In this document: positions 22,248-60,430 of the stretch, one piece after another
Numbering within the stretch: the first letter of the stretch is position 1
Layout of the letters: every line of letters begins with the position of its first letter
Origin: a virus
Taxonomy: Duplodnaviria; Heunggongvirae; Uroviricota; Caudoviricetes
Strand: one strand, 5' to 3'
Length of the DNA: 64,000 bases
IMG/VR virus record: IMGVR_UViG_3300034107_000364
The notes under the pieces: generated by a model
Database searches by the model: none
What the model was told of the DNA's origin: nothing
Seen by the model: only the letters and a program-made list of their open reading frames with translations
Position numbers and translations under genes: made by a program

Positions 22248-22248
22248 A

Positions 22249-22320: not shown

Positions 22321-22329
22321 AATCAATAT

Positions 22330-44333: not shown

Positions 44334-44653
44334 AAGAGTTAATAGGACAATACATATCAGAATGGGGTTGGGTGACAGCAGTAGCTATAATTTCATTTAC
44401 ATTCAAAGACATGATTGCTAATCTTGTTATTGGTATGCAGTTTTTATGGGGCAATGATTTTAATGTAGATGATATAGTTTATATTAAAGGCGCAAAGAAA
44501 GCTAGAATAGTTAGACAAAATATATACAAAACAACTTTTTATGTTTTTGGACATGAAAGAAAATTCGTAGTACCTAATAATAGACTATGGACTCTAGAAA
44601 TAGAAAAAGAAATACCAAAAGATGAAACACCTGAAAACTTTCCAATTATTTGA
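44330..44653 (+). CDS. hypothetical protein (107 aa)
   Basis: ORF; 3' end overlaps next gene by 30 nt in another frame. Confidence 0.4.
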   Translation: MKELIGQYISEWGWVTAVAIISFTFKDMIANLVIGMQFLWGNDFNVDDIVYIKGAKKARIVRQNIYKTTFYVFGHERKFVVPNNRLWTLEIEKEIPKDETPENFPII

Positions 44654-44885
44654 GGATGCTCAAAAAGTAGCTGACCTAAATCTTAAAGTTAGAGAATTAG
44701 ATTCTAAAAGAAACGAGATTAAAACTAAAGCTGCTGAAACTGCAAAAGCAATGAGAAACGAAGAGGATCCATTAAAATCTGAAATGTTAGCATTAACTGC
44801 ACAGAAACTTTCCATGCAAGCAGAAATATCAAAAATTGATATAAAACTTACTGCATTGAAAATAAAAATAGAATCTAATAAATAA
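44622..44885 (+). CDS. hypothetical coiled-coil protein with CTS-like leader
   Basis: MKHLKTFQLFEDAQK. Confidence 0.45.
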   Translation: MKHLKTFQLFEDAQKVADLNLKVRELDSKRNEIKTKAAETAKAMRNEEDPLKSEMLALTAQKLSMQAEISKIDIKLTALKIKIESNK

Positions 44886-44915
44886 ACATTATTAGATTTT
44901 TAAGTATAAGCTAAG

Positions 44916-45515
44916 ATGAAACACGTTAAAAATTACACAGAATACCTAAATGAGGTAAACAGAGCTGGAAAACCATATCATGGTTCCAAGATTCTTGTGT
45001 TTGATCTTGACGATACTTTAGTAATTTCATCAGCAAAAATAAAGGTTTGCAATAAGAAAACAGGAGAATGTTATTCACTGACTCCAGAAGAATTTAATAG
45101 TTATGAAAAACATGCAGATCATGAATTAAACTTTGATGAATTTAAATCATTAGAGATTATGAAAGCTGGTCAAATGATTGAACATTACTTAGACATATTT
45201 AAAGAAGCTTATAAATCACGCATCGCAGTTGGAATTGTTACAGCAAGAGATGATAGAGAAATGATTTATAGATGGTTAAGAGAACATGTTGGATTTAGAA
45301 TCGACAAAGATCTTATTTTTGCAGTGAATGATTCAGTACATAAATTCAAAGGTAGTATATCGGATCGTAAAAAACAAGCGTTTAGAGAATTGATCGATAT
45401 GGGTTACAGTGACCTACAATTTTACGATGATGATGAGGCTAATTTAGTATTAGTAAAATCATTAGAACAAGAACATGAAGGAATACAAATATCAACAATT
45501 AGAGCATACAAATAA
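44916..45515 (+). CDS. HAD-superfamily phosphatase with CTS-like leader
   Basis: leader MKHVKNYTEYLNE; HAD motif I FDLDDTL, motif II VTAR, motif IV YDDDEAN. Confidence 0.6.
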   Translation: MKHVKNYTEYLNEVNRAGKPYHGSKILVFDLDDTLVISSAKIKVCNKKTGECYSLTPEEFNSYEKHADHELNFDEFKSLEIMKAGQMIEHYLDIFKEAYKSRIAVGIVTARDDREMIYRWLREHVGFRIDKDLIFAVNDSVHKFKGSISDRKKQAFRELIDMGYSDLQFYDDDEANLVLVKSLEQEHEGIQISTIRAYK

Positions 45516-45517
45516 AT

Positions 45518-47059
45518 ATGAGTACATTTAAAGACATTAGAAATAATTTTCAAATAGCAATGGATAAAGCTATTCATGAATCAAAACAACCAACTAAAAA
45601 AGCAATTGAAGAGTTTTGGCTAGAAGGTTTTAAAAAGTTTATGAATTCTAAAGATTTTGCTGGTGTTTCCAGTAGAATAAGTGGAACAGGTGAAGTGTTA
45701 AGAGCAAATTTCGGCGCAAATGACGGAACGGCAGAAACTAAAATTATAGAATTTCTTAAAGAAGTAGGTGGTATTGATCCATCGTCTTATAGTATAGAAT
45801 TTAAACAACAAGGAATTGTTTCTAGTGATTTCGCAGGATATACAATAATTTTCAATACTAAAGTATCAGATGCTTTAGGTAAAGATTATAAAAAAGGAGA
45901 CTTTATAACAATTACCAATAGATTTAAAGTTAATAAAAAAGGAGAGCAGGGTGTTGTTGGTAGAAAAGATCTTACACCTGATAATCTAGGTATAACAAAA
46001 AACATATATCAATCAGCTGAAAGTTTATTTGCAGTTGTCTCTCCGGCTATATCTAATAGCAGTTTACCAGAAAACTATAAAAAATGTTTTATTACAGTAA
46101 CTGAATCTATTATGAATAATTCATCAAATAAAAATAAATTTAAAGATTTTGATGCTTATTTAGCAGCTGGAGTACATGACATATCTTATAGTGTTGACAA
46201 TAATATATTTGAGGGTATTGATCCTATTTCAATCCAACATTTCCAAAATGATTACGGAGAAATATTAGGAGGCTTTATGTTTTTTAATATACTTCAATCA
46301 TATGGTGTGGGATTATCTTATCCAAAATCATCTAATGAAAAATTAGTAGATTTTTATTTTAGCGGATATTCTATTTCTTCAAAAGGCGGAAAAGGAGGAA
46401 CACCGAGTGGAGATACTATAATTCAAAAAATATACCAAGCCAAACAAGATTCTTTAATACAAGCAGAAACTGCACTAGAATCAGATTTCCTTACTAATGT
46501 TGTAGAGCAGTGGGTTAATCCTCCTAAATTAGCTAGAAGTGGTACTTATGACAATATAATGAATTTGTGTAATGTTAATATAAAAGATCATTCAAATTCA
46601 GGATATTGGCTTCTTTGTTCAGAATCTAAATTAGATCCCTCGATGCTAACTCAAGATGCTGTTGTTAGTTTTCTAGATATATTATACGATTCTAATGTAG
46701 ATGAATTTAGCAATTTCATATCTAAATTATGGGATTTGAGTAAAATGCAATGGAATAAAGCTAAATTAAATGAGATGATAAAGTCATATCCTACAATGGG
46801 TAAAAACAAAATTGGAATAGTATTTTATGCTTTAATGGTTGAAATAGCTACATTATTAACTAATACGTATTCTAATGAATTATCTAAATTTGGAAGAATG
46901 GTAACAGATGTAAAACAATTATATTTAGATGTTTCTGTAAACAAAGGAACTCTTATATTTAAAACAATACCATTTAAATCAGCTAACTTTCAATTTGAAC
47001 AAAAAGGAAGTATGCCTAACCCATTTAATGCTAATATGGGAATAAAAGTAATTAAGTAA
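45518..47059 (+). CDS. hypothetical protein (513 aa)
   Basis: ORF. Confidence 0.5.
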   Translation: MSTFKDIRNNFQIAMDKAIHESKQPTKKAIEEFWLEGFKKFMNSKDFAGVSSRISGTGEVLRANFGANDGTAETKIIEFLKEVGGIDPSSYSIEFKQQGIVSSDFAGYTIIFNTKVSDALGKDYKKGDFITITNRFKVNKKGEQGVVGRKDLTPDNLGITKNIYQSAESLFAVVSPAISNSSLPENYKKCFITVTESIMNNSSNKNKFKDFDAYLAAGVHDISYSVDNNIFEGIDPISIQHFQNDYGEILGGFMFFNILQSYGVGLSYPKSSNEKLVDFYFSGYSISSKGGKGGTPSGDTIIQKIYQAKQDSLIQAETALESDFLTNVVEQWVNPPKLARSGTYDNIMNLCNVNIKDHSNSGYWLLCSESKLDPSMLTQDAVVSFLDILYDSNVDEFSNFISKLWDLSKMQWNKAKLNEMIKSYPTMGKNKIGIVFYALMVEIATLLTNTYSNELSKFGRMVTDVKQLYLDVSVNKGTLIFKTIPFKSANFQFEQKGSMPNPFNANMGIKVIK

Positions 47060-47261
47060 TTGATGAATCCTCAAGAGTGGCAACATTATGTAGACAAAGG
47101 TGAGGTTCCAATGCATTTTTTCAAATCAATGGTAGAATCTCTTAAGAAAGGTGAAAGGCTAAATGGTCAACATTTAGCGGTTTACCAATCTCATGGACCA
47201 ATCATTGAAATGATGTTACGCAAAAAATAAACTATTTCTACCATTTTCATATAAATTATAA

Positions 47262-48008
47262 ATGGAAAATTACACATATATTTTAGGTCCTTGTAGCATT
47301 GAAAGCGAGGACAACTTCACAGAAGTAGCAAATGCACTATATCCTATAATGCAAGGAAAAGATTGGTATCTTAAAGGTAGCTTTGATAAAGCCAATCGAA
47401 CTTCAATTCATTCTAATCGAGGTCCGGGTTTAGACGAAGGTATCGAGATTATGCGAAATGTCAAAGCTAAATTTCCAGGTCTTAAAATCGTTACAGATAT
47501 TCACACAGCAGATCAAGCATTACCATTATCAGATGTAGTAGATGTGATTCAAATTCCAGCATTCTTATGTAGACAAACAGATCTTCTTATAGAATGTGCA
47601 AAACACTTTAATATTATCAACGTTAAGAAGGGTCAGTGGTTATCTGCTGATGCAATGAAACATGCTGTTACCAAGATTAAAGAAGTAAATCCAACATGTC
47701 AAGTATGGATTACTGAACGTGGTACTCAATTTGGTTTTGATAGGTTAATTGTAGATTTCAGAGGAGTTGATGTAATGAAACAATTTGCAGATAAAGTTAT
47801 CTTTGATTGTACGCACTCAACTCAAATGTCAGGTGATGGTATTACAGGTGGAAGTAGAAAACTTGCAAAGCAATATTCTTTAGCTGCACGTATTTTTGAG
47901 TATGATGGAGTATTTATTGAAACACATCCAGATCCTGATAATGCCATCTCAGATGCAGCTAGTCAAGTAGAATTGGATTGGATGGTAGAAAATCTAAAAA
48001 ACATTTAA
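47262..48008 (+). CDS. kdsA: 3-deoxy-D-manno-octulosonate 8-phosphate synthase-like (KdsA/DAHP synthase family)
   Basis: LGPCSIESE, KGSFDKANRTS, IQIPAFLCRQTDLL, NVKKGQ, FDCTHSTQ conserved blocks. Confidence 0.7.
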   Translation: MENYTYILGPCSIESEDNFTEVANALYPIMQGKDWYLKGSFDKANRTSIHSNRGPGLDEGIEIMRNVKAKFPGLKIVTDIHTADQALPLSDVVDVIQIPAFLCRQTDLLIECAKHFNIINVKKGQWLSADAMKHAVTKIKEVNPTCQVWITERGTQFGFDRLIVDFRGVDVMKQFADKVIFDCTHSTQMSGDGITGGSRKLAKQYSLAARIFEYDGVFIETHPDPDNAISDAASQVELDWMVENLKNI

Positions 48009-48078
48009 ACTATTTTTTAAAAAAGGTGTTTTTTTAAAAAACTAAATGAATTGCCCAGATATATAATCAGAGCGCAAT

Positions 48079-48282
48079 ATGCCTTACCCTTTAAAAATAT
48101 CTAGTTTTACAATGGCAGAATTTATCCCAGAAGTTGTTCCTGCTTCTGAGCATGATTCAAAGACCGTAGAAGTTACAAGTGTTAAAAACGATTACATGTT
48201 CCAAATCACATTGGACGATCTTTATGACATAGCAGATGATTACGCTAATTGGGTCTATTTCGGAGTCGGTGGTCCAGCTTAA
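48079..48282 (+). CDS. hypothetical protein (67 aa)
   Basis: ORF followed by terminator. Confidence 0.45.
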   Translation: MPYPLKISSFTMAEFIPEVVPASEHDSKTVEVTSVKNDYMFQITLDDLYDIADDYANWVYFGVGGPA

Positions 48283-48291
48283 ACAGAACAA

Positions 48292-48320
48292 AGAGCAGCT
48301 TTTTTAGCTGCTTTTTTCTT
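48292..48320 (+). terminator. rho-independent terminator
   Basis: AGAGCAGCTtttttAGCTGCTTT + T-run. Confidence 0.65.
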
Positions 48321-48383
48321 TTATGAAACAAAATGAAGATAAATAATATAAATATATAATCTAAAATAATAAAAAACAAAATT

Positions 48384-48815
48384 ATGAGTACAACAATCAT
48401 CGCAGTAGCATTAGTCTCTTTAGTAGTTATTATAACTATTTTTAAAGCAATTGCAAAAAAAGAGAAAGAAGATTCTAAAAGAGGTTCAGTACTTGATCCT
48501 ATTGTAGAACCTACAGTAAAAAAACCTACTAAAATTAAAGCTGCTAAACCAGCAAAAGAAGTAGCACCAATTGCTAAAGAAGCAAAAGCTAAAAAACTTA
48601 CACCTAAAAAACCAAAAACAGGTAAAAATGCTACCAGTGGTTCAGGCTCTGGATCAGGATCAGGCTCTGGAAGTGGATCAAATGTAGGTGGAACAGGATA
48701 TGCTTATGGTACAGGTTCTGGCCGTTCAAGTGGTAAAGGTTCAGGTTCTGGAAGTGGAAGTGGTTCAGGTTCTGGAAGCGGAAGCGGTAAAGGTTCCGGT
48801 GCTGGTAAAAAATAA
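48384..48815 (+). CDS. membrane-anchored Lys-rich protein with (GS)n low-complexity tail
   Basis: N-terminal TM IIAVALVSLVVIITIF, Lys/Pro-rich linker, two (SG)6-9 runs. Confidence 0.5.
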   Translation: MSTTIIAVALVSLVVIITIFKAIAKKEKEDSKRGSVLDPIVEPTVKKPTKIKAAKPAKEVAPIAKEAKAKKLTPKKPKTGKNATSGSGSGSGSGSGSGSNVGGTGYAYGTGSGRSSGKGSGSGSGSGSGSGSGSGKGSGAGKK

Positions 48816-48847
48816 GAATATATAAAGTAAAATATACAAACAAACAT

Positions 48848-51800
48848 ATGTCATCATTTATTAATTTCAATAATAAAGAAGTTACGACTGGAGCAAGCTA
48901 TACTGCTGAAGCGGTTAAAATAGCTTTATTAAAGTCAGAGACTAAAAGCTCTATAAAAGCTGAAACGCTTACAAAAAATATCAAAGAACCTTTGTCTTTA
49001 AATGAGGCTTTAGTATTTTTTACTGATAAATTATCAGCCATGAAATCATTATCTCTTGCAAATGCAGAGATCAATGAAGGAAAGATCAAGCAATTCGAAA
49101 CGGATTACAAGGATATGGAAACCAGTATCAAGAGAGGTATTGGTTGGATTGATCCAGAATATGTAGCAGATACTTGGGAAAATTCATCAGACTCTATTGA
49201 TTTTGAATTAGTTAAAACCGAGCTTTATAAGAGATTAATTGCTGCAGGTTTATTAGCATTTTCAAATCCAGAAGATGGTGAAACAAAAGGTGTACCTGTT
49301 AGAAGTTTAAAAGACTTAAGTATTAAAGAGTCTTTAGAAGCAAATAAGGTTAACGAAACTTTATTCTTTGCATTCTTTAATAACAAGAAAATCGAAGTAG
49401 AAGGTAAAGATCTTTGGGATGCTAAACAAAAAGCAATCATCGAATTAAAGGTACCTAAATCTAAAGTTGGTTTATTAGCTGTAGTAAGTGCTGAATCACA
49501 AAAGAATCAAGATTTTAAATTTGAATCTTTTGTAGGTGAAAGTGAAGTCATCACTGTTGAGGTTGATATGGCATGGGATGATTTAGACAAAGAAGAAGAC
49601 AAAGCAGCTAAAGCAGCTTTCAAGAAATATAAGATCAAAGTTGAACCAATGAGTCTGGGTCGCGGTAGTCAGGACATTCGTCAAGAAGGAACTTTCGAAG
49701 TAACTGGTAAGAAAAAAGACATTCTTGCATATCTTAAAAGTGATTTCTATGAAATGGATCAAGAAACTATTGAAGAATACTATCCTGAACTTTTAGAATC
49801 TTCTAAAAAACCAGCAGGTCTTACATTAGACGATACAAAAAAGGTTGCAGAATTATATGCTAGCGCTCTTTCTAAAGCAGATGGTGTTAAAGCTACTGTT
49901 AATAAAAAATCACTAGAAGAAGATTCATTTGATTTAGATGTAGATGGCGAAGAATATGCAGGTGGATCTTACAATATTTATCATAACGGAGAAGTAGTTA
50001 ATCATGCAGTTCCAGGATCACCGGTATATGGTTATTTTGATGATAAGCTTGATACTATTGTAAAAAACATAAAAAATCCAAAATTACACGAGAGTGCAAT
50101 GTCAGATATTGATATTATGGCTCAAGAAGCAAAAGATTTTAAATCATTTGTAAAAGAGTTTAAAAAAGAACATCATGACTTATCTAGTGCTGGTGAACCA
50201 GGTCAATTTGAAGCATGGTTACAAACAATTTACGATACTGCTAAAGAAAACATGGACGAGTCAGTAGTTAACGAAGGTCAATTCTCATGGATGGCTCAAG
50301 ATACTGGAAATCAAATTGGTTCTGAAAAACAAAATACCATTACTATTACAATGTTTGATGACAAAGGTAATAAATGGGAAGAAAAGAAATATGACGGTTA
50401 CGGTGAATTCGGTGGTAAAGATTACTACGAATTATTAGCTCAAATGAATGGAATTGAAAATCCTAATAGACAAGATGGTATTGATATTGCATTTGATAAA
50501 AAGAAAGTTAGTGGAAAAGTTCTTTTCCCAGCTTTAGTTGAAGATCCAAAACGTTTCAACTTCAAAAAGCACGATTTTACACAAGAAGCAGAACATGATC
50601 CAAATCAATCATGGTACCAAGAAGAAGAGTACGATGATGATTATGAAGAGTATGATGAATCTAAAGTTACTGAAGCAGCAAGAGTACCTTCTAATGTTTT
50701 AGATTTTGCTAAAAGAAAAGGAAGTTATGCAACTTCATTGGTTAAGAAAGCTGCTACATGGGCTGAAAAAGCTGGTAAGTATATTAGCGGTGGTACTGCA
50801 ATTGGTAAAGATTATATGACTATAATTTTAGACATGAAACATCAAGGTTCTGAAATTTATATTAATCTAAATGACGAAACAATTGAATTATTTGGCGAAG
50901 AAGTTACTGATGCTAAATCATTCCAAAAAGTATTAGATGCAAATATGTCAGAATCTAAAGTTAATGAATCTGCGGCTGATCTAATAAAATATGTTGAAAC
51001 CGCATCTGAAAAAACTTTCAAAGGTGGTGGTAATGGTCAAAATCTATTAGATAATGCAATGGAACTTGCTTCACACATTGGAGACTATGAAATGGGCAGA
51101 CCTACTAGAGGATATGAAGAAGATGGTTTTTATGGTCCAGCTACAATAACTTTATTTAAAAGATTAGTTGATCAAATGTCAGCAGATGATATTAAAAATA
51201 ATCAAGCTGATAAATATGAATCTAAAGTTACTGAATCACATTTTAAAGTTGGCGACAAAGTAAAAATGTCACATGGTGGAACTGGTGTAATTGTTTCTTT
51301 AGATAAAGAAGATGGCGCAGAGGATGAAAAATACTATAATGTAGAATTACCAAACGGAGAAATGCACAAGCACGCACCTAATGAATTGACTAAAGAATCA
51401 GTAGTTATTGAAGGTATATCTGTTACAGACGAGAGAGTTTATGGTAAAAAAGGTATTATCATTATGATTGATGATAATGGTAAACAAGTATCTGCGATAT
51501 TCAAAGATAAAAAGAATGCTGACAAATACAATAGAAATAAGGCAGAAGATATTAAAGCTCTTTTAGATTTAGCTAAAGATACTAAATATCCAAATGCTAT
51601 TGATGAATCTGTTGTTAATGAAGGTAGATCAATCAATAAAATCCAAAAAGAATGGAGTGAAACTACTACTAAAATGCAACAAAAAGCAGGTGAGTGGAAA
51701 GTAGCTGAAGGCGATAGAAAATCTGAATTGTTGGATGAAATGAAAGCATTGACAGCTAAGAAAAGAGAATTAGAAGCAGAATTAGACGCAGCTGTTGCTG

Positions 51801-52426
51801 GTAAAGATAAAGATCTTGAATTAGTAGTATCTGAAGGAAATGCATTCGGTGCCGCAAGAGCTAAAGCAATTGCAGATGGTGCTAAAGAATTTGAATTTGA
51901 AGGTGAAACTTATAAAGTTGAAGATGTTGGAGCAGACGATAAAGAAAATGCAAAAGAATTCGTAGAAGAAGGAAATGCATTCTTGGCTGCAAGAGCTAAA
52001 GCAATCGAAGAAGATGCTGAAGAATTTGAATTTAATGGTAAAACCTTTCCAGTTATTGAAGAAGGAAATGCATTCGGTGCAGCAAGAGCAAAAGCTATTG
52101 CAGATGGTGCAAAAGAATTTGAATTTGAAGGCGAAACTTATAAAGTAGAAGACGCTGGACCAGACGATAAAAAAAATGCTAAGGAATTCGTAGAAGAATC
52201 TAAATTAACGTTAGATGCTTTAGTAGAAATGTTTGAGGTAAAGGTTAACGAAGATTTAAGATCTGATGTTAAGAAATTTATCAAAGACAATGCAAATGAA
52301 TTAAACACTTTAGCTGATAAAGACGAATGGGACTTAATGTATACAAAACTATACAATGAGTTCAATGTTGAAGCAAATTCAACAAAAGGAAAAGACTTAT
52401 TAAAGACATTCCAGTTCGTATTCTAA
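48848..52426 (+). CDS. large acidic protein (1192 aa) with 3x ~33-aa internal repeats and recurrent ES(V/K)V(N/T)E motifs
   Basis: repeats EGNAFGAARAKAIADGAKEFEFEGETYKVED x3 near C-terminus; motifs DESVVNEG (x2), ESKVTE (x2), ESKVNE. Confidence 0.55.
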   Translation: MSSFINFNNKEVTTGASYTAEAVKIALLKSETKSSIKAETLTKNIKEPLSLNEALVFFTDKLSAMKSLSLANAEINEGKIKQFETDYKDMETSIKRGIGWIDPEYVADTWENSSDSIDFELVKTELYKRLIAAGLLAFSNPEDGETKGVPVRSLKDLSIKESLEANKVNETLFFAFFNNKKIEVEGKDLWDAKQKAIIELKVPKSKVGLLAVVSAESQKNQDFKFESFVGESEVITVEVDMAWDDLDKEEDKAAKAAFKKYKIKVEPMSLGRGSQDIRQEGTFEVTGKKKDILAYLKSDFYEMDQETIEEYYPELLESSKKPAGLTLDDTKKVAELYASALSKADGVKATVNKKSLEEDSFDLDVDGEEYAGGSYNIYHNGEVVNHAVPGSPVYGYFDDKLDTIVKNIKNPKLHESAMSDIDIMAQEAKDFKSFVKEFKKEHHDLSSAGEPGQFEAWLQTIYDTAKENMDESVVNEGQFSWMAQDTGNQIGSEKQNTITITMFDDKGNKWEEKKYDGYGEFGGKDYYELLAQMNGIENPNRQDGIDIAFDKKKVSGKVLFPALVEDPKRFNFKKHDFTQEAEHDPNQSWYQEEEYDDDYEEYDESKVTEAARVPSNVLDFAKRKGSYATSLVKKAATWAEKAGKYISGGTAIGKDYMTIILDMKHQGSEIYINLNDETIELFGEEVTDAKSFQKVLDANMSESKVNESAADLIKYVETASEKTFKGGGNGQNLLDNAMELASHIGDYEMGRPTRGYEEDGFYGPATITLFKRLVDQMSADDIKNNQADKYESKVTESHFKVGDKVKMSHGGTGVIVSLDKEDGAEDEKYYNVELPNGEMHKHAPNELTKESVVIEGISVTDERVYGKKGIIIMIDDNGKQVSAIFKDKKNADKYNRNKAEDIKALLDLAKDTKYPNAIDESVVNEGRSINKIQKEWSETTTKMQQKAGEWKVAEGDRKSELLDEMKALTAKKRELEAELDAAVAGKDKDLELVVSEGNAFGAARAKAIADGAKEFEFEGETYKVEDVGADDKENAKEFVEEGNAFLAARAKAIEEDAEEFEFNGKTFPVIEEGNAFGAARAKAIADGAKEFEFEGETYKVEDAGPDDKKNAKEFVEESKLTLDALVEMFEVKVNEDLRSDVKKFIKDNANELNTLADKDEWDLMYTKLYNEFNVEANSTKGKDLLKTFQFVF
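51820..52200 (+). repeat. in-frame tandem coding repeat (3 copies, ~100 nt unit)
   Basis: gaaggaaatgcattcggtgc(c/a)gcaagagc(t/a)aaagc... repeated. Confidence 0.6.
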
Positions 52427-52427
52427 A

Positions 52428-52510
52428 TTGTTCGCAACTTTTATGAAAATAATTAAGCCCAAATTTTTTAGTTTGGGCTTTTTTTTGTATATTAGCTCTA
52501 TAATTAAAAC
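52428..52510 (+). promoter_or_regulatory. terminator/promoter cassette, copy 13 (hairpin variant, TTGTTCGCAAC)
   Basis: TTGTTCGCAACTTTTATGAAAATAATT-AAGCCCAAAttttttagTTTGGGCTT-TTTTTTGTATATTAGCTCTATAATTAAAAC. Confidence 0.6.
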
Positions 52511-52568
52511 AAAATTAGAAGCTTTCATATAAATAGTATGAATAAATTGAAAATAAACGATAAATAGT

Positions 52569-52622
52569 TTTTTATGTCGTTTTTTTCGTGTACATTAACA
52601 ATATTAACCAATTAAATTTAAA
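52569..52622 (+). promoter_or_regulatory. promoter cassette variant, copy 14
   Basis: TTTTTATGTCGTTTTTTTCGTGTACATTAACAATATTAACCAATTAAATTTAAAAC upstream of ATG 52626. Confidence 0.45.
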
Positions 52623-52625
52623 ACT

Positions 52626-53213
52626 ATGTTATACACTTATTGTAAAGACTCGTTAACTTTTAAACGAATTAATCCCCGAAAAATGCTTAAAGCCATAGGA
52701 GCATCTTTGCTCTTCTTAGGCATTACTTATTATACCACATACAATGTGGCCACACAGAAAGCTTCCGCTAAATCCATGACTAACATGTCATATGAACAAA
52801 AAGTCTTAATAGTTAATGAAATATCCAAGAATGAGTTTTCAAAAGAAGCTGTGGTAGAAGAACTTAAGCGACTTAATGTAAAATACCCACATATTGTATT
52901 AGCTCAAGCTCTTATAGAAAGCGGCCATTTTCAAAGTAATATCTTTAGATCTAATAATAATTTGTTTGGTATGAAAGAAGCTAAACAAAGAACTACTACT
53001 GCACGTGGAACTAATTTAGGTCATGCTTATTACGATAATTGGAAAGAATCAATCTTAGATTATGCAATATTTCAATCAGCTTATCTTAGAGACCTTAATA
53101 CAGAAGAACAATATTTAAGTTATTTGGGTGCAAATTATGCAGAGGCTAGTAATTATGAATTAGCTGTAACAAATATGATAAAAAACGAAAAACTAAAAGA
53201 GCTTTTTAATTAA
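52626..53213 (+). CDS. membrane-anchored mannosyl-glycoprotein endo-beta-N-acetylglucosaminidase-domain protein (FlgJ/LytD-like glucosaminidase)
   Basis: TM LKAIGASLLFLGITYY; LAQALIESGHFQSNIFRSNNNLFGMK matches Glucosaminidase domain core. Confidence 0.6.
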   Translation: MLYTYCKDSLTFKRINPRKMLKAIGASLLFLGITYYTTYNVATQKASAKSMTNMSYEQKVLIVNEISKNEFSKEAVVEELKRLNVKYPHIVLAQALIESGHFQSNIFRSNNNLFGMKEAKQRTTTARGTNLGHAYYDNWKESILDYAIFQSAYLRDLNTEEQYLSYLGANYAEASNYELAVTNMIKNEKLKELFN

Positions 53214-53246
53214 GATATATAATATAATTAAAAAAATATTTATAGT

Positions 53247-53516
53247 ATGAAATACGCAAAACCTTTCGAAGCTTTCGCAAATAAAATTGAATTACCTAAG
53301 ACGATTACTGAAAAGAAATCTGATGGTACTATTTCAGATGACGAAGAAGCAAGAGAAGAAGATTTAATGGCTAACGTTGAAGTTGCTATCGATGACTTAA
53401 TCACTTTAATTAAAAAAGAAGCTAACGAAATAGGTGGTTCTTTTAGATCTCCTGGAATTGAATCTAGAGTTGGTAAACTTTTAAAAGCAAAATTAGCAAA
53501 AGCAAAATTAATTTAA
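53247..53516 (+). CDS. hypothetical protein with weak CTS-like N-terminus (89 aa)
   Basis: MKYAKPFEAFANKIE. Confidence 0.45.
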   Translation: MKYAKPFEAFANKIELPKTITEKKSDGTISDDEEAREEDLMANVEVAIDDLITLIKKEANEIGGSFRSPGIESRVGKLLKAKLAKAKLI

Positions 53517-53521
53517 TAATT

Positions 53522-53851
53522 ATGAAACACATTAAACTATTTGAACAATTTATCAACGAAGGTAAATTCATTGACTTTAAATTTAATTCTAACAAGGATC
53601 ATAATCCTTGTTGTGATATTTTAGAAGGTCACTTAGACGGTGATACATTTATCACATATGGTATTTATGTTAAAGCTGATGGTGATAAAAAAGTTGGAGA
53701 TGAATTCATGGAACAATACACTGGTTCAAACTATAAAGTAGGATCAAGCAAAAGATCAAATTCAAGAATTTATGAACCTTCTAAAATTCCTGCTAAATAC
53801 AAAGCAGCTTGGGAAGAATTAAAAGCTAAATACGAAAAAGAATATAAATAA
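53522..53851 (+). CDS. hypothetical protein with CTS-like leader (109 aa)
   Basis: MKHIKLFEQFINE|GK. Confidence 0.55.
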   Translation: MKHIKLFEQFINEGKFIDFKFNSNKDHNPCCDILEGHLDGDTFITYGIYVKADGDKKVGDEFMEQYTGSNYKVGSSKRSNSRIYEPSKIPAKYKAAWEELKAKYEKEYK

Positions 53852-53857
53852 GATATT

Positions 53858-54196
53858 ATGAAACACACTAAATTATTCGAAGAATTCTTAAATGAAGCTA
53901 AATCACCTAAACCAGAGATTTTAGTAAAATTATTTAAAGAACTTGCTAAAGCCAAAAATGTAGAAAAACTTATTTGGGGACATGACGATCAAGAAGAATT
54001 TCCACATATTGTACACTTTGCAAATGGATTAGAATCTGAAGCTCCAAGACACGAAGGTGACATGGAAGAATTTTCATTCTATTTAAATGACGATGGTCAA
54101 ACTATCTTAGGTATTTATGACTTAAGTGGATATGATGAAGAGTTAAAAACTCCAAAAGATGCAGTAGTTTGGTGCAGAGCTAACGAAAAACAATAA
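53858..54196 (+). CDS. hypothetical protein with CTS-like leader (112 aa)
   Basis: MKHTKLFEEFLNE|AK. Confidence 0.55.
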   Translation: MKHTKLFEEFLNEAKSPKPEILVKLFKELAKAKNVEKLIWGHDDQEEFPHIVHFANGLESEAPRHEGDMEEFSFYLNDDGQTILGIYDLSGYDEELKTPKDAVVWCRANEKQ

Positions 54197-54209
54197 AACA
54201 ATACACACG

Positions 54210-54401
54210 GTGGCACTCTTTAAATTGGTTAAATTTTTTGAATCCGAACTAGAAAACTTAGAAGCAAATAAATCTAAATGTTTTATAGTTAGAAAATGGC
54301 ATAATTATAGAATTATGATTATCAAAGATAGGATCAAAGAATTAAGAGACGAAATTAATTTAAGAAAGAGACAACCTCGTGAAAAACAAGATTACAAATG
54401 A
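54210..54401 (+). CDS. hypothetical small protein (63 aa, GTG start)
   Basis: ORF with non-ATG start; weak. Confidence 0.3.
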   Translation: MALFKLVKFFESELENLEANKSKCFIVRKWHNYRIMIIKDRIKELRDEINLRKRQPREKQDYK

Positions 54402-54736
54402 AACACACTAAATTATTTGAAGAATTCGTAAACGAAGGTAATGAAATGCCAATCGGTTTAGAAGCTTTTACTAAAGACGAAAAATCAGAAGGTAAACCTG
54501 CAGAAATTTATTTAGCAACCTTTAGTGGTAAAACTTTCAAAGCACAATCTACTGATAAAACATGGGACGACGGAGTTCCTGTAACAAAGAACTTTACAAG
54601 AGGTGGTTACAAAGACGTAACTATTAAAGGACAACACTATATCATTGACACACCAACATTCTGGTATTTCAGAGTAGGTCGAGTTTGGTATGCTGTTAAA
54701 CGTGCTGATTATGGTACACCACCATTTGAATATTAA
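54398..54736 (+). CDS. hypothetical protein with CTS-like leader (112 aa)
   Basis: MKHTKLFEEFVNE|GN. Confidence 0.55.
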   Translation: MKHTKLFEEFVNEGNEMPIGLEAFTKDEKSEGKPAEIYLATFSGKTFKAQSTDKTWDDGVPVTKNFTRGGYKDVTIKGQHYIIDTPTFWYFRVGRVWYAVKRADYGTPPFEY

Positions 54737-54750
54737 ATAAAATACAAATC

Positions 54751-55716
54751 ATGAAAATAGTTAAATTATTCGACGATTATCTAAATATTGCTGCTTCTCA
54801 GCAGAATATGTCAAGAGAACAGTATGCTGCATTTTATATGTCAGAAAAATCAATTACTGAAGAAGGTGATACTCTTACTGAATTAAATAATATGACTTTA
54901 GGTCAATTAGAAAGAATTGAAGATTATGCTGAAATGATCGGAGATCGCATGAAAGGCGGTCAAAAATTAGAATCTTGGATGTTTTCTCAAATCACTGGAG
55001 CGGTGGACAATCTAAACGCAGTTCATGATGCAATGGATGGTGTTGATGGTATTAAAGAAAAGAAAATCACAGTTGATTGGGAAGATGATGAAAATGCATT
55101 TATATTCTCAGATGATGGTATGGTTAAAGTTGATTATGATGGAGATTTTCAATACAGAGGTAAATGGTTTTCAACAGCAGAACACACTGGACCAGAAGAT
55201 TTACTTAAAGATTTAAATAAAGCATTCAAAGGCGATAAATTCGTTTATATTAGTGAATCTAAAAATTCTGATGCATTAGCAAAAGGAATTGATTCAGCAA
55301 TTATTAAAATTGATGACTCTTTGTCATACACTGATTTTGCATTAGCAGTTGCTAAGGTATTGATCGATGAATACGGTACACATAATTTTGGACCATTCAT
55401 GTCAGTATTACACAAAGAATTAGGTTTAAAAGAAAGCGTAGTTAATGAGAAGAAAGATGACTATCCAGTTTATCACAATCTCTATTCCTCAGCTATTAAT
55501 GCAGTTGAAATATATGCTAATTCTCAAGGATATACATTAGATCCTAAAGAATACGGTGATGCTTATATAGATGCATTCTTTAAACCAAATGATGGTAAAA
55601 CCAAAAAAGATACCTTAACACTTTTTAAAAACGATAAGGAACAAAAGAAATCTTTACATGTTCAAATTTATAATAGAGGAAACGATAAATTTGAATTGAA
55701 TATGTATATTAACTAA
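54751..55716 (+). CDS. hypothetical protein with CTS-like leader (321 aa)
   Basis: MKIVKLFDDYLNIA; internal ESVVNE motif. Confidence 0.55.
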   Translation: MKIVKLFDDYLNIAASQQNMSREQYAAFYMSEKSITEEGDTLTELNNMTLGQLERIEDYAEMIGDRMKGGQKLESWMFSQITGAVDNLNAVHDAMDGVDGIKEKKITVDWEDDENAFIFSDDGMVKVDYDGDFQYRGKWFSTAEHTGPEDLLKDLNKAFKGDKFVYISESKNSDALAKGIDSAIIKIDDSLSYTDFALAVAKVLIDEYGTHNFGPFMSVLHKELGLKESVVNEKKDDYPVYHNLYSSAINAVEIYANSQGYTLDPKEYGDAYIDAFFKPNDGKTKKDTLTLFKNDKEQKKSLHVQIYNRGNDKFELNMYIN

Positions 55717-55733
55717 TATGGAAGCAGACAGTC

Positions 55734-55973
55734 GTGAGTATAACGAAAAAACTAAAAAGCCGTCTATCAACATGGAGCATGATGGTAGCCCTATTTTTCA
55801 ATCCGCTTGGGTTCGACGTAATTCAGTACTGGTTGATCCAGACGACTGGAAGTCTTTGGCGCGCCAATTTCGTTATGTATTTTATTGCGGCGTCGTTCTT
55901 TGGGCTATCCATATTATTTCGCTGGCAATTAAAGCGTAAAGAGAATGAAACACATGATAGTTTAGATGTATAA
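55734..55973 (+). CDS. small membrane protein (2 TM) in GC-rich island
   Basis: MMVALFFNPLGFDVIQYWLI and FVMYFIAASFFGLSILF helices; preferred over overlapping 55718-55939 ORF, but frame choice uncertain. Confidence 0.35.
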   Translation: MSITKKLKSRLSTWSMMVALFFNPLGFDVIQYWLIQTTGSLWRANFVMYFIAASFFGLSILFRWQLKRKENETHDSLDV

Positions 55974-55986
55974 CTAATAAACGTTT

Positions 55987-56790
55987 ATGTTATTAATATC
56001 GAACAAAGGTAATATTACAGGACCTAACGTATTATTAGAAAATACACCAGATTATATAGATTTCGCAATTCAACAAGGATACAATGTCAAAATAGATTTT
56101 TGGTATCAAGACAATAAATTCTTTTTAGGTGCAAATGGACCAAAAACCCAAATAGATTGGGATTGGCTTACAAATATAAAACGTTTAGAATATCTATGGA
56201 TTAATTGCATGGATACTCAAACGTTTTCTTTTTTATTAGAGAATGCTCCATCTCTTAATTTCTTCTATAACAAAAGTGATAATATTACAATAACTTCTAA
56301 GGGTATTCCTTGGTCTAATATCACAAATCAATACACTTCTAATACTATTTCATGTAATGACACGAACATCGATAAGGTTGTGGGTGTGTGTTCTGATTGG
56401 GTTTCTAAATGGTCTAAACAGATAGCCATTTGTTTTTATGGAAACGCTGGTCTGCCTAGTAAGCGTATCATTAAGAATCATAAGTTAAATTTAATTAAGC
56501 CTTTAGAAGAGCTGGGATTTCATTTGGAGTACTATGGTTCCAAGATAATGAATTACAAAGAGACTGATCTTAAATACAACGAGATATATAACTTCAGAGG
56601 ATTAATATCCCATTTAAAAGATTCTGATAAAGATCAAGAAGAATTTGAATTAATACAACTCAAATCAATGTATGACATGATGGGAGATAATGTATATGAA
56701 ACCATATTCTTTATAAAATGGGATCAAGAATTAAAAGAAGAAGAAATAAAGAATCATATAAAAACATTTAAAACAAATGAAGAAAGTTAA
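55987..56790 (+). CDS. hypothetical protein (267 aa)
   Basis: ORF. Confidence 0.5.
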   Translation: MLLISNKGNITGPNVLLENTPDYIDFAIQQGYNVKIDFWYQDNKFFLGANGPKTQIDWDWLTNIKRLEYLWINCMDTQTFSFLLENAPSLNFFYNKSDNITITSKGIPWSNITNQYTSNTISCNDTNIDKVVGVCSDWVSKWSKQIAICFYGNAGLPSKRIIKNHKLNLIKPLEELGFHLEYYGSKIMNYKETDLKYNEIYNFRGLISHLKDSDKDQEEFELIQLKSMYDMMGDNVYETIFFIKWDQELKEEEIKNHIKTFKTNEES

Positions 56791-59212
56791 ATTATTTGAA
56801 GAATTCATAAGCGAAGTTTCAAAGCAAATGATTTCTGGAACAAGCGGTAGAACTATCACCACTTTAGATAATCGTAAATACGAATTAAAGAAGGATGTCA
56901 AAGATGCTAAGATTGGTAATTATATTAATGTAGTTTTACCAAAGGGTACTATTATCACTAATTTACCAGGTGGTGTTTTTGCAAATCATAAAGATCTTAA
57001 AGACAAATATTGTACAGGATATAAATCTGAAAGATGGGATGAAAAATTCGGAGTGGGAATTAGAACAATGCCAGATACATTAGAAGCTATTGAAGATAAT
57101 TCTAAAGTATTGGAATCAATTAGCCTTGAAGAAACTTTAAATGAATTACATTTAAGTTCTGCTGGTGTTAAAGATTTTTTAAGAGCTATTTATAATAGCA
57201 ATACTAATATAATACAGAAGTTAAACTTTAAAAATTTTAGAGGTTTAACAGATTATATCAAAGGAAGTGATATAGAAGAATTTGATGAATTACGAGATGA
57301 AGCAAAGGCAGCTGGATTAATATTGTTAGAATCAACCCTTAATGAAGCTAAAAAACAAAAATTTGTTTTATATACAAATCCTGGAAATTCAACCAGTGCG
57401 GGTTATATTGCAATTGGAGCAGCAGATGTAAGAGAAGTTCTAAGTGACGCAAAAAACTATTCTGATAGTTGTAAAATATTATATCAAGGAACGGGTACAC
57501 AAGATGATCTTGTAAAAGCTAAAAACATGTTTAGTGGTTATAGATTCGGTGATGAATCAATCGATGAAGCAGTTGAGTTAGTACATGTTTATGATACTAA
57601 AGGTGAATTACAAGGAACTGGTGAGTTAGTAAAAACTAGAGCTAATAAATCTCTAATTAGATGGGATGGTTCTAGTGAAGAATGGATCGATTCGAAATTG
57701 GTGAAATTAGTTGAAGGAATGATTAGTCCTAAAATGGCAAATGGTTTTAAAATTGGAAACAAAATTAAAACTCAAAAAGGAACTTACACAATAACTGGAT
57801 TTGGTTCAAAAACTGGAGCAACTAGAGATTTTGAAGCTGAAAATGAAAATGGAGATAAATTCAATTTAAGAGTTTCATTAAGAGGTGCTACGGGTATTCA
57901 AGTTGCAGCTGGTAAAAGTTTAAACTTTCCAGAGCAAGAAGAAATGTTAGAATCTACAATTAATGAAGATGCTGCAACCACATTTTTAATACTAATGCAA
58001 TCTGCCATGGTTATGGGACAATTAGCATTATTAGGTAATAAAATAAGTGCAGGTGGTGGTACTACTCCAATTGAAGATTTAAAAAATTGGTGGCAAAAAA
58101 GAAAATCTGATAAAGCTGTAAAATCAATCATTGATAAAATTAAAGATGACAAAGATATTGTTGAATTTATGAAGCTTACGCCTTCTCAACAACGTGGTAA
58201 ATTTAGATCATTAGTTGCAACTAAATTAAATGACGAAGAATTAAATTATTTGAATAAGATTAATAGAAATCATTTTCAAACTGAATCTTTAGATGAAAAC
58301 TTTCCAGGTCCTGGCGAAACAGTAGATGCTAAAGATCTTGATTACGATATGTTAGATTATTTTAGCAGAACTAATAAAGTATTATCAATCGATACAAAGT
58401 CCAAAAAAGGAATTAAAGGTTCTGTTGGTAAAATGTATAATGATTTAGTTTTTAACGGAGATAGTATTGCCAAAAAAGACATCGTACGTGTAAAGATCTT
58501 AGAAGGTACTTATAATAACGATAGAGAAATTGCAATCTACGACGGTGAAGATGGATTAACTTACATTGAAAAACGTGGTAAAGGATACTATGGTTACAAT
58601 GATGAGTTTGATTTTGAAGCAGAAGATAAAGCTGAATTAGAAAAGAAACTAAAATCATGGAAATATAAATTAATGTCAGGTTCTATTGACGAGGCATTTG
58701 TAGGACCATTTTTCTTTAGTAATTCAACATCTGATGAAGATCTAAAGAAAATGTATGATGACGCATTAAGTGGATATGCTAATTGGTTAAAAGGATTTGA
58801 ATATCCAAAAGCAGATTATAAGAAAGCATATCAAGAAATTGAAAAACTTCTTAAGAAAAGAGGAATTAAGGTTGATGAGTCTATTGTTAACGAGCATTCT
58901 TTACAGGAATCTAAGTACTTGAATGAAGCTAAGATTTTATCAAGAGTAGAAATGAAAAACGTAATGGTTACTAAATATGGTCTTAGTTTCGTAAAAAATT
59001 CGGAAGAGTTTGACGGTGAAGAAGGTGGTATTTGGTTAGGTGGTAACGACGGTTTATTAATGCCAAATGCGAAAGATGAAATGTTTAACTATTACCATGG
59101 AGGATCTAAATTTCCACAAGGTATTCACAAAGATCTTGCTAAATTTTTAGATAAGTGTGGATGGTATGGTCAATTTGCAGATCCAGGAACAGTAATGCTT
59201 TGGCCAAGATAA
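56777..59212 (+). CDS. large protein (811 aa) with CTS-like leader and internal (L/I/V)xE motifs
   Basis: MKKVKLFEEFISE|VS; internal DESIVNEH and SKYLNE|AK. Confidence 0.55.
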   Translation: MKKVKLFEEFISEVSKQMISGTSGRTITTLDNRKYELKKDVKDAKIGNYINVVLPKGTIITNLPGGVFANHKDLKDKYCTGYKSERWDEKFGVGIRTMPDTLEAIEDNSKVLESISLEETLNELHLSSAGVKDFLRAIYNSNTNIIQKLNFKNFRGLTDYIKGSDIEEFDELRDEAKAAGLILLESTLNEAKKQKFVLYTNPGNSTSAGYIAIGAADVREVLSDAKNYSDSCKILYQGTGTQDDLVKAKNMFSGYRFGDESIDEAVELVHVYDTKGELQGTGELVKTRANKSLIRWDGSSEEWIDSKLVKLVEGMISPKMANGFKIGNKIKTQKGTYTITGFGSKTGATRDFEAENENGDKFNLRVSLRGATGIQVAAGKSLNFPEQEEMLESTINEDAATTFLILMQSAMVMGQLALLGNKISAGGGTTPIEDLKNWWQKRKSDKAVKSIIDKIKDDKDIVEFMKLTPSQQRGKFRSLVATKLNDEELNYLNKINRNHFQTESLDENFPGPGETVDAKDLDYDMLDYFSRTNKVLSIDTKSKKGIKGSVGKMYNDLVFNGDSIAKKDIVRVKILEGTYNNDREIAIYDGEDGLTYIEKRGKGYYGYNDEFDFEAEDKAELEKKLKSWKYKLMSGSIDEAFVGPFFFSNSTSDEDLKKMYDDALSGYANWLKGFEYPKADYKKAYQEIEKLLKKRGIKVDESIVNEHSLQESKYLNEAKILSRVEMKNVMVTKYGLSFVKNSEEFDGEEGGIWLGGNDGLLMPNAKDEMFNYYHGGSKFPQGIHKDLAKFLDKCGWYGQFADPGTVMLWPR

Positions 59213-59232
59213 TAACAAAAGTACATTAGATT

Positions 59233-59610
59233 ATGAGACACGTTAAAACATATGAAGACTACAACAATTTAAATGAATATAATGATTTAAAGGGATCAGA
59301 AGTATGGAGACATATTAAAGATATTACACCTGAAAAAGAAAATATTCCAAATGGATTTAAAAAAGATATTGTTGGTAGAACATTTGCAAACGTAGATGAT
59401 TTTGATATGAAGTCTTTATTAAAAACCGATCCTGATTTTAAAGAATATTATGATTCAGGAGAAGAACGTTACACTGATGACGATGTAAGTCCAAGAGATC
59501 TTTCATTAGAAATAGTTGTCGTTGATGGTGTTTTATTAGATGGATATTCTAGAGTTGCTAATCTTTTAAGAAATGGTGAAAAAACAACTTCGGCTTTTAT
59601 AGCAAAATAG
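59233..59610 (+). CDS. hypothetical protein with CTS-like leader (125 aa)
   Basis: MRHVKTYEDYNNLNE|YN. Confidence 0.5.
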   Translation: MRHVKTYEDYNNLNEYNDLKGSEVWRHIKDITPEKENIPNGFKKDIVGRTFANVDDFDMKSLLKTDPDFKEYYDSGEERYTDDDVSPRDLSLEIVVVDGVLLDGYSRVANLLRNGEKTTSAFIAK

Positions 59611-59634
59611 TTAGATATATTAAATAATATTTCA

Positions 59635-59668
59635 AAGGAGGTACTTTTAAAGTTACCTCCTTTTTTAT
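59635..59668 (+). terminator. rho-independent terminator
   Basis: AAGGAGGTACttttaaaGTTACCTCCTT + T6. Confidence 0.7.
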
Positions 59669-59701
59669 TTTGATATATAGTATATAAATAAATTTATAAT
59701 C

Positions 59702-60430
59702 ATGAAATATATCAAATTATTTGAAGAATTTGTAAGCGAGGGCGTATATGATCCAGGAATCCTTAAGGCATTCTTTATGGCAGGTGGACCAGGAAGTGGT
59801 AAATCTTATGTTGCAACAGAACTTTTTGATTTTCCAAAAGGAAAAGTAGGTTCAGTGTCTTATGCAACTGGACTTAAATTAGTTAATAACGATAATGCAT
59901 TCGAAAAAGGCTTAAAAGATGCTGGATATAATGCAGGAGATCTTGCAGATTTAGCAAAAGATCCTGAAAAATGGGCTGAAGTTATGGTTATTAGAGATAA
60001 AGCTAAAAACTTGACCAGAGGACTTCAAAATAACTATTTAAATTCTAGATTAGGTCAAGTAATTGATGGAACTGGTAAAGATTTTGATAAGATTAGTAAA
60101 ACTAGAGATATTTATCAAAACTTAGGTTATGATACATATATGGTTTTCGTTAATACATCATTAGAAGTTGCATTAGAGCGAAATCAAATGAGAGAAAGAA
60201 AGTTAGAAGATAAAATGGTTGAAAAAATGTGGAAAGAAGTTCAAAATAACTTAGGTCACTTTCAAAAACTATTTGGATCTGATAAAATGTTAATTGTTGA
60301 TAATTCAGCATATGGTGAAGATCTATTAGATCAAGCCGAAAAGCAAATTAACAGAAACTTGGGTACACCAGTTCAAAATCCATTAGGTAAACGTTGGATT
60401 CAAGAACAACTAGCAGCAAAAAAACAATAA
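59702..60430 (+). CDS. P-loop NTPase (kinase-like) with CTS-like leader
   Basis: MKYIKLFEEFVSE|GV then Walker A GGPGSGKS; adenylate/polynucleotide-kinase-like size (242 aa). Confidence 0.55.
   Translation: MKYIKLFEEFVSEGVYDPGILKAFFMAGGPGSGKSYVATELFDFPKGKVGSVSYATGLKLVNNDNAFEKGLKDAGYNAGDLADLAKDPEKWAEVMVIRDKAKNLTRGLQNNYLNSRLGQVIDGTGKDFDKISKTRDIYQNLGYDTYMVFVNTSLEVALERNQMRERKLEDKMVEKMWKEVQNNLGHFQKLFGSDKMLIVDNSAYGEDLLDQAEKQINRNLGTPVQNPLGKRWIQEQLAAKKQ

Follow-up and report, generated by a model that had tools for sequence, protein, structure and literature searches.

Introduction

The capsid-targeted internal proteins known from phage T4 are mostly small inhibitors of restriction enzymes, together with the ADP-ribosyltransferase Alt; Mullaney and Black reportedly treated the T4 internal proteins and their capsid-targeting sequence (CTS) in 1996. 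IPI, IPII, IPIII and the CTS have been reviewed (PMC9026906, PMC3012670), and within this sequence residues 4 and 7 drive targeting, while residues 8 and 10 drive processing by the prohead protease gp21 (PMC9026906). IPII and IPIII start with MKTYQEFIAE/A (here and below a slash marks the known or predicted cleavage junction), which contains the core [FY]xx[FY][LIV]xE. Here we describe a 64,000-nucleotide stretch of the Caudoviricetes record IMGVR_UViG_3300034107_000364, the whole of which we call the window, where a leader with this core precedes both a phosphatase of the haloacid dehalogenase (HAD) superfamily and a P-loop kinase. A first-pass annotation had seen in these two genes the separated halves of a polynucleotide kinase-phosphatase (Pnkp) that would be injected to heal RNA ends. 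Our analysis favours another view: the two proteins are probably independent capsid-cargo enzymes, with substrates more likely to be found at the level of nucleotides than of polynucleotide ends.

Zeta and PezT toxins and AvrRxo1, which are kinases of UDP-GlcNAc and NAD, provide one point of comparison for such enzymes. Another is provided by T4 Pnk (PseT), bacterial Pnkp and Pnkp1, which have in common with the window kinase a P-loop kinase fold with a general-base Asp and a lid Arg; T4 Pnk and Pnkp also share with the window phosphatase the DxDxT signature and the S/T-x-R, K and DD motifs. Six residues of T4 Pnk are essential for its kinase activity, among them Arg38, a residue binding the acceptor's 3'-phosphate (PMC2831316).

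Results

A T4-type leader is shared by ten clustered genes

The HAD phosphatase (FDLDDTL, from 44916) and the P-loop NTPase (GGPGSGKS, from 59702) are encoded exactly as first annotated, as separate genes, and the shared leader attributed to both was confirmed (Table 1). The pattern M[KR]x[ILVT]Kx[FY]xx[FY] was found at residue 1 of 10 of the 100 window genes, against 0.0075 in shuffles, and the same pattern matched internally once in 18,126 residues. All ten genes lie within 43845-60430. The strict T4-type core [FY]xx[FY][LIV]xE occurs within the first 16 residues of seven of 93 open reading frames (ORFs; 0.12 expected), and these seven include the HAD phosphatase, the kinase and a NUDIX hydrolase. 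The leader is carried by unrelated proteins, with NUDIX, HAD and P-loop folds and seven others. The DNA 5' of the start codons is unrelated from gene to gene and the synonymous positions vary, which indicates that the leader is selected at the peptide level.

T4 residues 4, 7, 8 and 10 correspond to F7, F10, [ILV]11 and E13 of the window leader. As in the T4 internal proteins, a short N-terminal propeptide (10-19 residues) is placed on otherwise unrelated proteins, its core ends in a gp21-type L/I-x-E site, and the tagged genes are clustered and diverse. The setting is also reminiscent of T4, which has the order ipII-ipIII-e-nudE (NUDIX)-tRNA array-ipI in one 8.5-kb stretch (locus L172, T4 65416-73878): the window contains a tRNA array, a lysozyme-like gene (10009-10467, recognised by sequence only) and leader-tagged proteins including a NUDIX hydrolase. 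Unlike that of T4, the window leader has 13 residues with an extra MKH-x-K start, and its cargo includes recognisable enzymes (kinase, HAD phosphatase, NUDIX hydrolase), whereas the T4 cargo consists of small basic inhibitor proteins. The host and phage lineages are moreover distant from those of T4, and it is from the comparison that we infer packaging in the window phage. In AlphaFold2 (AF2) models both leaders form a separate low-confidence helix, at the N-terminus of the kinase and, in the HAD protein, with a predicted local distance difference test score (pLDDT) of 49-55. Past the predicted cleavage site the HAD chain would begin at V14 (VNRAGKPYHGSK) and the kinase chain at G14 (GVYDPGILK).

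The predicted cleavage junction is conserved in the kinase family and recurs in the HAD family

The kinase family is present in Methylophilales phage Melnitz, Pelagibacter phage HTVC008M, Agrobacterium phage Atu_ph07 and Ralstonia phage RsoM2USA. The N-termini read MKTFAELQE/G in Melnitz, MIPFILKE/G in HTVC008M and MTTFKEYLLE/G in RsoM2USA, and the corresponding junction in Atu_ph07, ...VTE/G, is internal to a 778-residue protein. E13-G14 is invariant in the alignment of these four phages with the window clade, and 75 of 80 IMG/VR relatives have a junction [LIMV]xE/G ahead of the conserved kinase core, with leaders such as MKTYQDIRE. The kinase-family leaders vary by lineage and the E/G junction stays; MKTYQDIRE, MKTFAELQE and MTTFKEYLLE are similar to the leader of T4. 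At two kinase loci (L013, L015) genes for a T4-type portal protein gp20 and prohead protease gp21 are found 5-9 kb downstream; a gp21-type protease is encoded near or with the cargo genes in these two, in L156 and in Atu_ph07.

The HAD leader agrees with [FY]xx[FY][LIV]xE, and its residues N12 and E13 are nearly invariant among close relatives. The strict core was present in 23 of the 71 IMG/VR HAD relatives with an intact start, compared with 2.8% of other ORFs (for example MKKFNEFLAE, MKDFTEFLTE/G and ..YAEFIAE/A). Some other relatives begin right at the catalytic strand without any leader, so that the leader is a modular element of this family; the N-terminal extension is likewise absent from the more distant homologues P0242-P0244 and LR756500.

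A published proteome places one member of the kinase family in the virion. Gp53 of Atu_ph07 (87.08 kDa) was detected in virions by mass spectrometry with 31 peptides and 45.5% coverage (PMC6102473, Tables S3 and S5), and its amount peaked in gel band 9, at the running position of proteins of about 21 kDa (PMC6102473). Because a protein of 87 kDa peaks in a band of about 21 kDa, gp53 is apparently processed, and the phage encodes a gp21 homologue (PMC6102473). Gp53 has a kinase domain homologous to that of the window (38% identity) directly after V-T-E/G, and belongs to the gp53-gp65 cluster of proteins found in virions (Attai et al. 2018, PMC6102473). It differs from the window protein in that the kinase is one module of a 778-residue polyprotein, which is annotated as hypothetical with the kinase unrecognised. 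Gp53 and its neighbours gp54-gp57 have a leader of their own, M[RK]W..L.E (locus L008, 190-5590; MRWEQLTE in gp56 and gp57, also MKWNDLNE). Taken together, the comparison with T4 and relatives and this one published proteome support well the reading of the leader as a capsid-targeting tag.

In RsoM2USA, like Atu_ph07 a jumbo phage, the clustered proteins 254-258 (locus L010, 1594-4735) show the lineage-specific leaders MTTFKEYLLE, MNQTFKQFLTE and MRLKQFLME. Among them only ORF257, a neighbour without such a leader, is reported from virions.

The kinase is related to Pnk, PSTK and zeta toxins and lacks the acceptor arginine of T4 Pnk

D64, D122-G-T124 with the G that follows, and the lid residues R160, R164 and R166 are invariant over five phage lineages of the kinase family. 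The window protein scored above the Pfam cut-offs of Zeta_toxin (8e-10, 38.9 bits; cut-off 22.3) and AAA_33 (8e-9, 36.4 bits; cut-off 27) and matched PHROG 12810 at 5e-37. The kinase family aligned with the whole T4 Pnk kinase domain (hhalign 94.8%, E 5.5e-8), and a profile search of the PDB returned O-phosphoseryl-tRNA kinase (PSTK) at 4e-6 and zeta toxin at 6e-4; single-sequence and shallow-profile searches of the PDB were uninformative. The best structural and profile matches were the Pnkp kinase of C. thermocellum, PSTK and Kti12.

Of the six residues that T4 Pnk needs for its kinase activity, five have equivalents here. K34, S35, D64 and R164 align with its Lys, Ser, Asp35 and Arg126, and D122 stands one residue away (S84 in the alignment) from Asp85; these residues (P-loop Lys/Ser, D64, D122, R164) are common to the wider kinase clade. 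The sixth, Arg38, has no equivalent: it aligns with F67, a position occupied by F, Y or I in the five lineages and followed by an invariant E68. The polynucleotide specificity first attributed to the kinase is not supported in view of this conserved hydrophobic residue, by which the protein differs from Pnkp.

On the acceptor side the motifs of the protein resemble those of zeta toxin. Besides passing the Zeta_toxin cut-off, it shares the motifs V-N-N-D, VIDGTGKD and GYDT (I-D-N-D, VIEGTGRT and GYET in zeta toxin 1gvn), and the alignment to 1gvn spans Walker A, the catalytic Asp after strand 2 and the (E/D)GT acceptor motif. Unlike in these toxins, an antitoxin partner was not seen and the C-terminal half is nearer to PSTK and Pnk than to zeta. 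With AvrRxo1 it would have in common that the enzyme is delivered into a target cell.

The HAD protein belongs to a family distinct from Pnkp phosphatases

In addition to motif I (Table 1), the HAD protein has motif II at T109 (in VGIVTARDD), motif III at K152 and motif IV at D171-D172-D173, with an insert of about 35 residues after motif I. D30, D32, R111, K152 and D172 never vary among 77 homologues of 25-60% identity, and T109 and D171 hardly do. Membership of the protein in the Pnkp phosphatase family was not supported by comparison. The window protein had no match to HAD_PNKP (PF25109) or PNK3P at E<=0.1, and at E<=0.01 HAD_PNKP matched none of the 77 homologues and PNK3P one, compared with 38 for DUF2608 and 19 for Acid_phosphat_B; T4 Pnk itself matches HAD_PNKP at 2.8e-59. 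The window protein, which has all the HAD motifs, falls below the cut-offs of the DUF2608 and class B-C acid-phosphatase-type family models (16.6 and 16.2 bits) and is probably of this kind (HAD subfamily III), which differs in sequence from Pnkp. Its family aligned with T4 Pnk at 33% probability in hhalign, a shallow alignment covered motif I alone, and single-sequence and shallow-profile searches of the PDB were uninformative. Both the window protein (1.6e-12) and the T4 Pnk phosphatase domain (3e-24) match PHROG 415. Eight HAD-family loci additionally encode a true phosphatase of the pseT type or a complete Pnkp, which indicates that the two kinds of phosphatase are not interchangeable. Fusion partners of the HAD family were cytidylyltransferase-like, dCMP-deaminase-like, NUDIX, GNAT and lysozyme domains, and never AAA_33 or a ligase.

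We also considered that the HAD protein might serve the neighbouring sugar genes as a KDO-8-phosphate (KdsC-like) or heptose-bisphosphate (GmhB-like) phosphatase, the kinase being unrelated to it. A KDO-8-phosphate synthase gene (NCBIfam 5.5e-86) lies 1.7 kb downstream and a GT9 heptosyltransferase-like gene 3 kb upstream of the HAD gene, and the protein weakly matches PHROG 1238, 'phosphoheptose isomerase' (0.0023). However, KdsA (KDO-8-phosphate synthase) was encoded at none of 80 HAD-family loci and a capsid-targeting leader would be unexpected on such an enzyme, so that we regard this explanation as highly improbable.

The lipopolysaccharide-type sugar genes of the window are located at 38796-43481, 47262-48008, 7630-8322 and 15650-16294. 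Their products are a 1068-residue protein with GT9 (heptosyltransferase-like) and GT1 glycosyltransferase parts, an NAD-dependent epimerase, the KDO-8-phosphate synthase, a GT25 protein and a further glycosyltransferase.

The two enzymes are inherited separately and associate with nucleotide enzymes

The idea that the two genes form a pair did not hold in the relatives. They are 14.2 kb apart in the window with about 20 genes between them. A HAD-family gene was found within 10 kb at none of 80 kinase-family loci and a kinase-family gene at 3-4 of 80 HAD-family loci; among sequenced phages the kinase carriers lack the HAD gene and the HAD carriers lack the kinase gene. In contrast to the two halves of Pnkp, they are thus neither fused nor adjacent nor co-inherited. 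The two families adjoin at loci L166 and L171 and are 6.7 kb apart at L170, and at these three loci a cytidylyltransferase-like nucleotidyltransferase forms one protein with the kinase domain; at L056 the fusion partner of the kinase domain is adenylate kinase. The neighbours recorded at the 80 kinase-family loci are an NT5C nucleotidase (30), adenylate kinase (22), a nucleotidyltransferase (22) and DUF6267 (20), homologues of which were not found in the window.

DUF6267 also adjoins the HAD family at 13 of 80 loci. Its K-W-D-G, E-G-x-V and K-x-V-x-R motifs do not vary and recall ligase motifs I, IV and V, and it often begins with a T4-type leader of its own, such as MNFSEFLTE/G. HTVC008M gp127 (L002, 4245-5477) is one member; others are encoded at L021, L026, L086, L140, L145, L160, L170 and L171, among other loci, and PHROG 455 unites DUF6267 with the cytidylyltransferase-like enzyme. 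By these motifs it is a candidate for the missing RNA ligase. However, a profile search of the PDB was empty, and hhalign against T4 Rnl2 and the window DNA ligase gave a probability of less than 1%.

These data bear on the proposal that the enzymes are separated halves of a Pnkp-like end-healing activity, a 5'-OH polynucleotide kinase and a 3'-phosphatase, injected to repair tRNA or other RNA cut by host anticodon nucleases. It is consistent with the homology of the kinase to the whole T4 Pnk kinase domain, with the equivalents of T4 K15, S16, D35, D85 and R126, and with the best kinase matches, each of which works on nucleic acid or tRNA. The PHROGs held in common with the T4 Pnk halves (415 for the phosphatase, 2071/505 for the kinase), the few loci where the families lie close together and the large tRNA array of the window point the same way. 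Against it stand the replacement of the essential Arg38, the lack of HAD_PNKP matches in a HAD family that occurs beside true pseT-type phosphatases, and the distance and rare co-occurrence of the genes. Where the families do adjoin, the kinase is fused to the cytidylyltransferase-like enzyme and not to a ligase. Phmmer detected no homologue of RnlA, RnlB or PseT in the window or the 7 kb downstream of it, so that the ligase partner of Pnkp was not seen, and the kinase is accompanied in its relatives by adenylate kinase, NT5C and the cytidylyltransferase-like enzyme. RNA end-healing by these two proteins appears to us quite unlikely. Their likeness to Pnkp is true only as remote homology of each protein to one half of the T4 enzyme; this part of the first-pass annotation stands.

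The most serious competitor of the capsid-cargo view is that both are cytoplasmic metabolic enzymes whose N-terminal peptide serves a different purpose, for instance in a route by which kinase, HAD phosphatase and nucleotidyltransferase make an activated sugar or cofactor. Both families are found fused to a cytidylyltransferase-like domain, the kinase neighbours listed above include NT5C, adenylate kinase and the nucleotidyltransferase, and the window is rich in glycosyltransferase, KDO-8-phosphate synthase and NAD-salvage genes. Relatives bear source names such as 'FMN phosphatase', 'dephospho-CoA kinase' and 'cytidylate kinase'. A parallel could be drawn to the ADP-heptose and NAD pathways, or to AfhE and AfhF, which produce the UDP-arabinose that RB69-like phages use to modify DNA; this precedent is analogous and not homologous, as the folds differ from those of the window enzymes (PMC13326640). 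However, the leader fits the functional positions of the T4 CTS, the protease-type site is invariant at the boundary of the kinase core, the Atu_ph07 homologue is physically in virions, and the nucleotidyltransferase, adenylate kinase, NT5C and DUF6267 partners were not found in the window. A purely cytoplasmic role seems unlikely on this evidence.

Other features of the window

The window is AT-rich (about 31% GC) and carries all its genes on the plus strand. Megablast of a 17.5-kb region against sequenced phages gave no match at the DNA level. Near-identical proteins are encoded by contigs from marine metagenomes, the longest about 255 kb; some of these records bear the label Flavobacteriales, and a neighbouring gene weakly matches SprB. 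The source is a large marine phage of roughly 255 kb, and its host is probably a member of the Bacteroidota. ARAGORN counted 25 tRNA genes, where an array of 26 had been announced, and the gene at 21229-21726 described as PTH2-like had no Pfam match and matched a PHROG only as 'hydrolase'. An NAD-related gene cluster at 20008-24543 (Table 1) resembles a phage module for the salvage or reconstitution of NAD.

Among the leader-tagged genes, an 811-residue protein contains four internal sites of the ES[VIK][VL][NT]E or E[ST][IL][NV]NE type. Five such sites occur in a 1192-residue protein, which also has three tandem EGNAF.AARAKAI...EFEF.G.T repeats. Neither ORF had a family match; both probably encode polyproteins of the head interior that the prohead protease cuts, as seems to be the case for Atu_ph07 gp53. 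Nothing useful came from PHROG scans of the remaining leader-tagged proteins or of the large proteins downstream. Two low-complexity proteins were noted: one of 143 residues, membrane-anchored with long (GS)n runs (48384-48815), and one of 559 residues with many PTATP / PAPTAT repeats (61422-63101), where the local GC content is 42% against about 31%. Directly upstream of the kinase gene, at 59620-59700, a strong hairpin is followed by a T-run (aaaggaggtacttttaaagttacctccttttttatttt) and then by a TATATA-rich stretch. Similar (G)ATATATA motifs precede 48848, 53247 and 61422, and may be a phage promoter motif. A sigma-70 promoter scan found fewer sites than in shuffles, with no co-regulation signal.

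Table 1. Coordinates of the two enzyme genes, the leader-tagged set and associated features in the window
Feature	Position	Strand	Sequence or residues	Remarks
HAD-superfamily phosphomonoesterase gene, leader-tagged	44916..45515	+	199 aa	
HAD leader	44916..44954	+	13 codons, MKHVKNYTEYLNE	cleavage predicted after E13
HAD motif I	45000..45020	+	FDLDDTL, F29-L35	nucleophile D30, acid/base D32
P-loop kinase gene, Pnk / PSTK / zeta-toxin clade, leader-tagged	59702..60430	+	242 aa	
Kinase leader	59702..59740	+	13 codons, MKYIKLFEEFVSE	cleavage predicted between E13 and G14
Walker A	59783..59806	+	GGPGSGKS, G28-S35	sequence and alignments
NUDIX hydrolase	43845..44333	+	leader MKHLKKYDQFINE	Pfam NUDIX 1e-12; leader scans
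Leader-tagged protein	44622..44885	+	87 aa, MKHLKTFQLFED	leader scan
Leader-tagged protein	53522..53851	+	109 aa, MKHIKLFEQFINE	leader pattern and strict core
Leader-tagged protein	53858..54196	+	112 aa, MKHTKLFEEFLNE	leader pattern and strict core
Leader-tagged protein	54398..54736	+	112 aa, MKHTKLFEEFVNE	leader pattern and strict core
Leader-tagged protein	54751..55716	+	321 aa	one internal ESVVNE site
Leader-tagged protein	56777..59212	+	811 aa	four internal E[ST][IL][NV]NE-type sites; probable polyprotein
Leader-tagged protein	59233..59610	+	125 aa, MRHVKTYEDYNNLNE	leader scan
Protein without N-terminal leader	48848..52426	+	1192 aa	five internal ES[VK]V[NT]E sites; probable processed head-internal polyprotein
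Phosphoribosyl-pyrophosphate-synthetase-like protein	20008-20883			NAD-related cluster
Macro domain	21726-22247			NAD-related cluster
Nicotinamide phosphoribosyltransferase-like protein	22330-23814			NAD-related cluster
Nucleoside 2-deoxyribosyltransferase-like protein	24073-24543			NAD-related cluster

Discussion

We propose that the HAD phosphomonoesterase and the kinase of the Pnk/PSTK/zeta clade, as enzymes unrelated to each other, have each acquired a 13-residue propeptide with the T4 CTS core; they belong to a tagged set of at least ten genes. The propeptide would dock the cargo protein onto the scaffolding core of the prohead, and the prohead protease would then cut after Glu13, at [LIV]-x-E. 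The mature enzymes would remain in the filled head and reach the cell together with the DNA, ahead of phage gene expression. Each family would be an independent and recurrent capsid cargo of T4-related phages, with mononucleotides, nucleotide sugars or dinucleotides such as NAD or UDP-GlcNAc as candidate substrates. Delivery on injection, claimed from the start, is made plausible by the T4-type leader; packaging, cleavage and ejection in this phage, like the substrates, are what we infer from its relatives, and a T4-type protease is assumed here on the same ground.

Several observations weigh against this proposal. A T4 head-gene search found no prohead protease, portal or capsid genes in the window, and the downstream loci L003/L004 were likewise negative. 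The virion evidence comes by homology from one protein of another phage, Atu_ph07 gp53 of the kinase family. An obvious rationale for packaging enzymes of a biosynthetic type is missing. In structure comparison the folds of both proteins were nearest to Pnkp modules, in line with the original reading. The kinase model (pLDDT 63) is poor precisely at the presumed acceptor site (residues 43-62 and 111-119), so that our view of its substrate rests on sequence motifs and gene context.

A literature search of limited coverage found no earlier work on packaged kinases or phosphatases or on the cyanophage 'cytitidyltransferase' module. The general T4-type addressing of enzymes is the more interesting result of this analysis, and the 'split Pnkp' is its weaker part. 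An addressing system of the T4 type is seen here in a very distant and abundant lineage of marine phages, on recognisable enzymes, and in many uncultured phages related to T4 the members of both enzyme families bear tags of the T4 type. As a tentative outlook, T4-related marine phages, including the lineage of roughly 255 kb, might pack a nucleotide-directed enzyme kit that is injected and acts before phage expression. Such a kit could comprise the zeta/Pnk-like kinase, the HAD phosphatase and the NUDIX hydrolase, joined in relatives by the nucleotidyltransferase and the ligase-motif protein DUF6267, and it may remove or alter the nucleotides of host immune signalling or molecules derived from NAD, or else mend RNA that defence nucleases have cut. 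If packaging is confirmed, it would widen the known repertoire of phage-injected proteins and would suggest that enzymes act on nucleotides or on the ends of nucleic acids within seconds of the start of infection, and [FY]xx[FY][LIV]xE at the N-terminus would offer a simple rule for recognising injected proteins in metagenomes.

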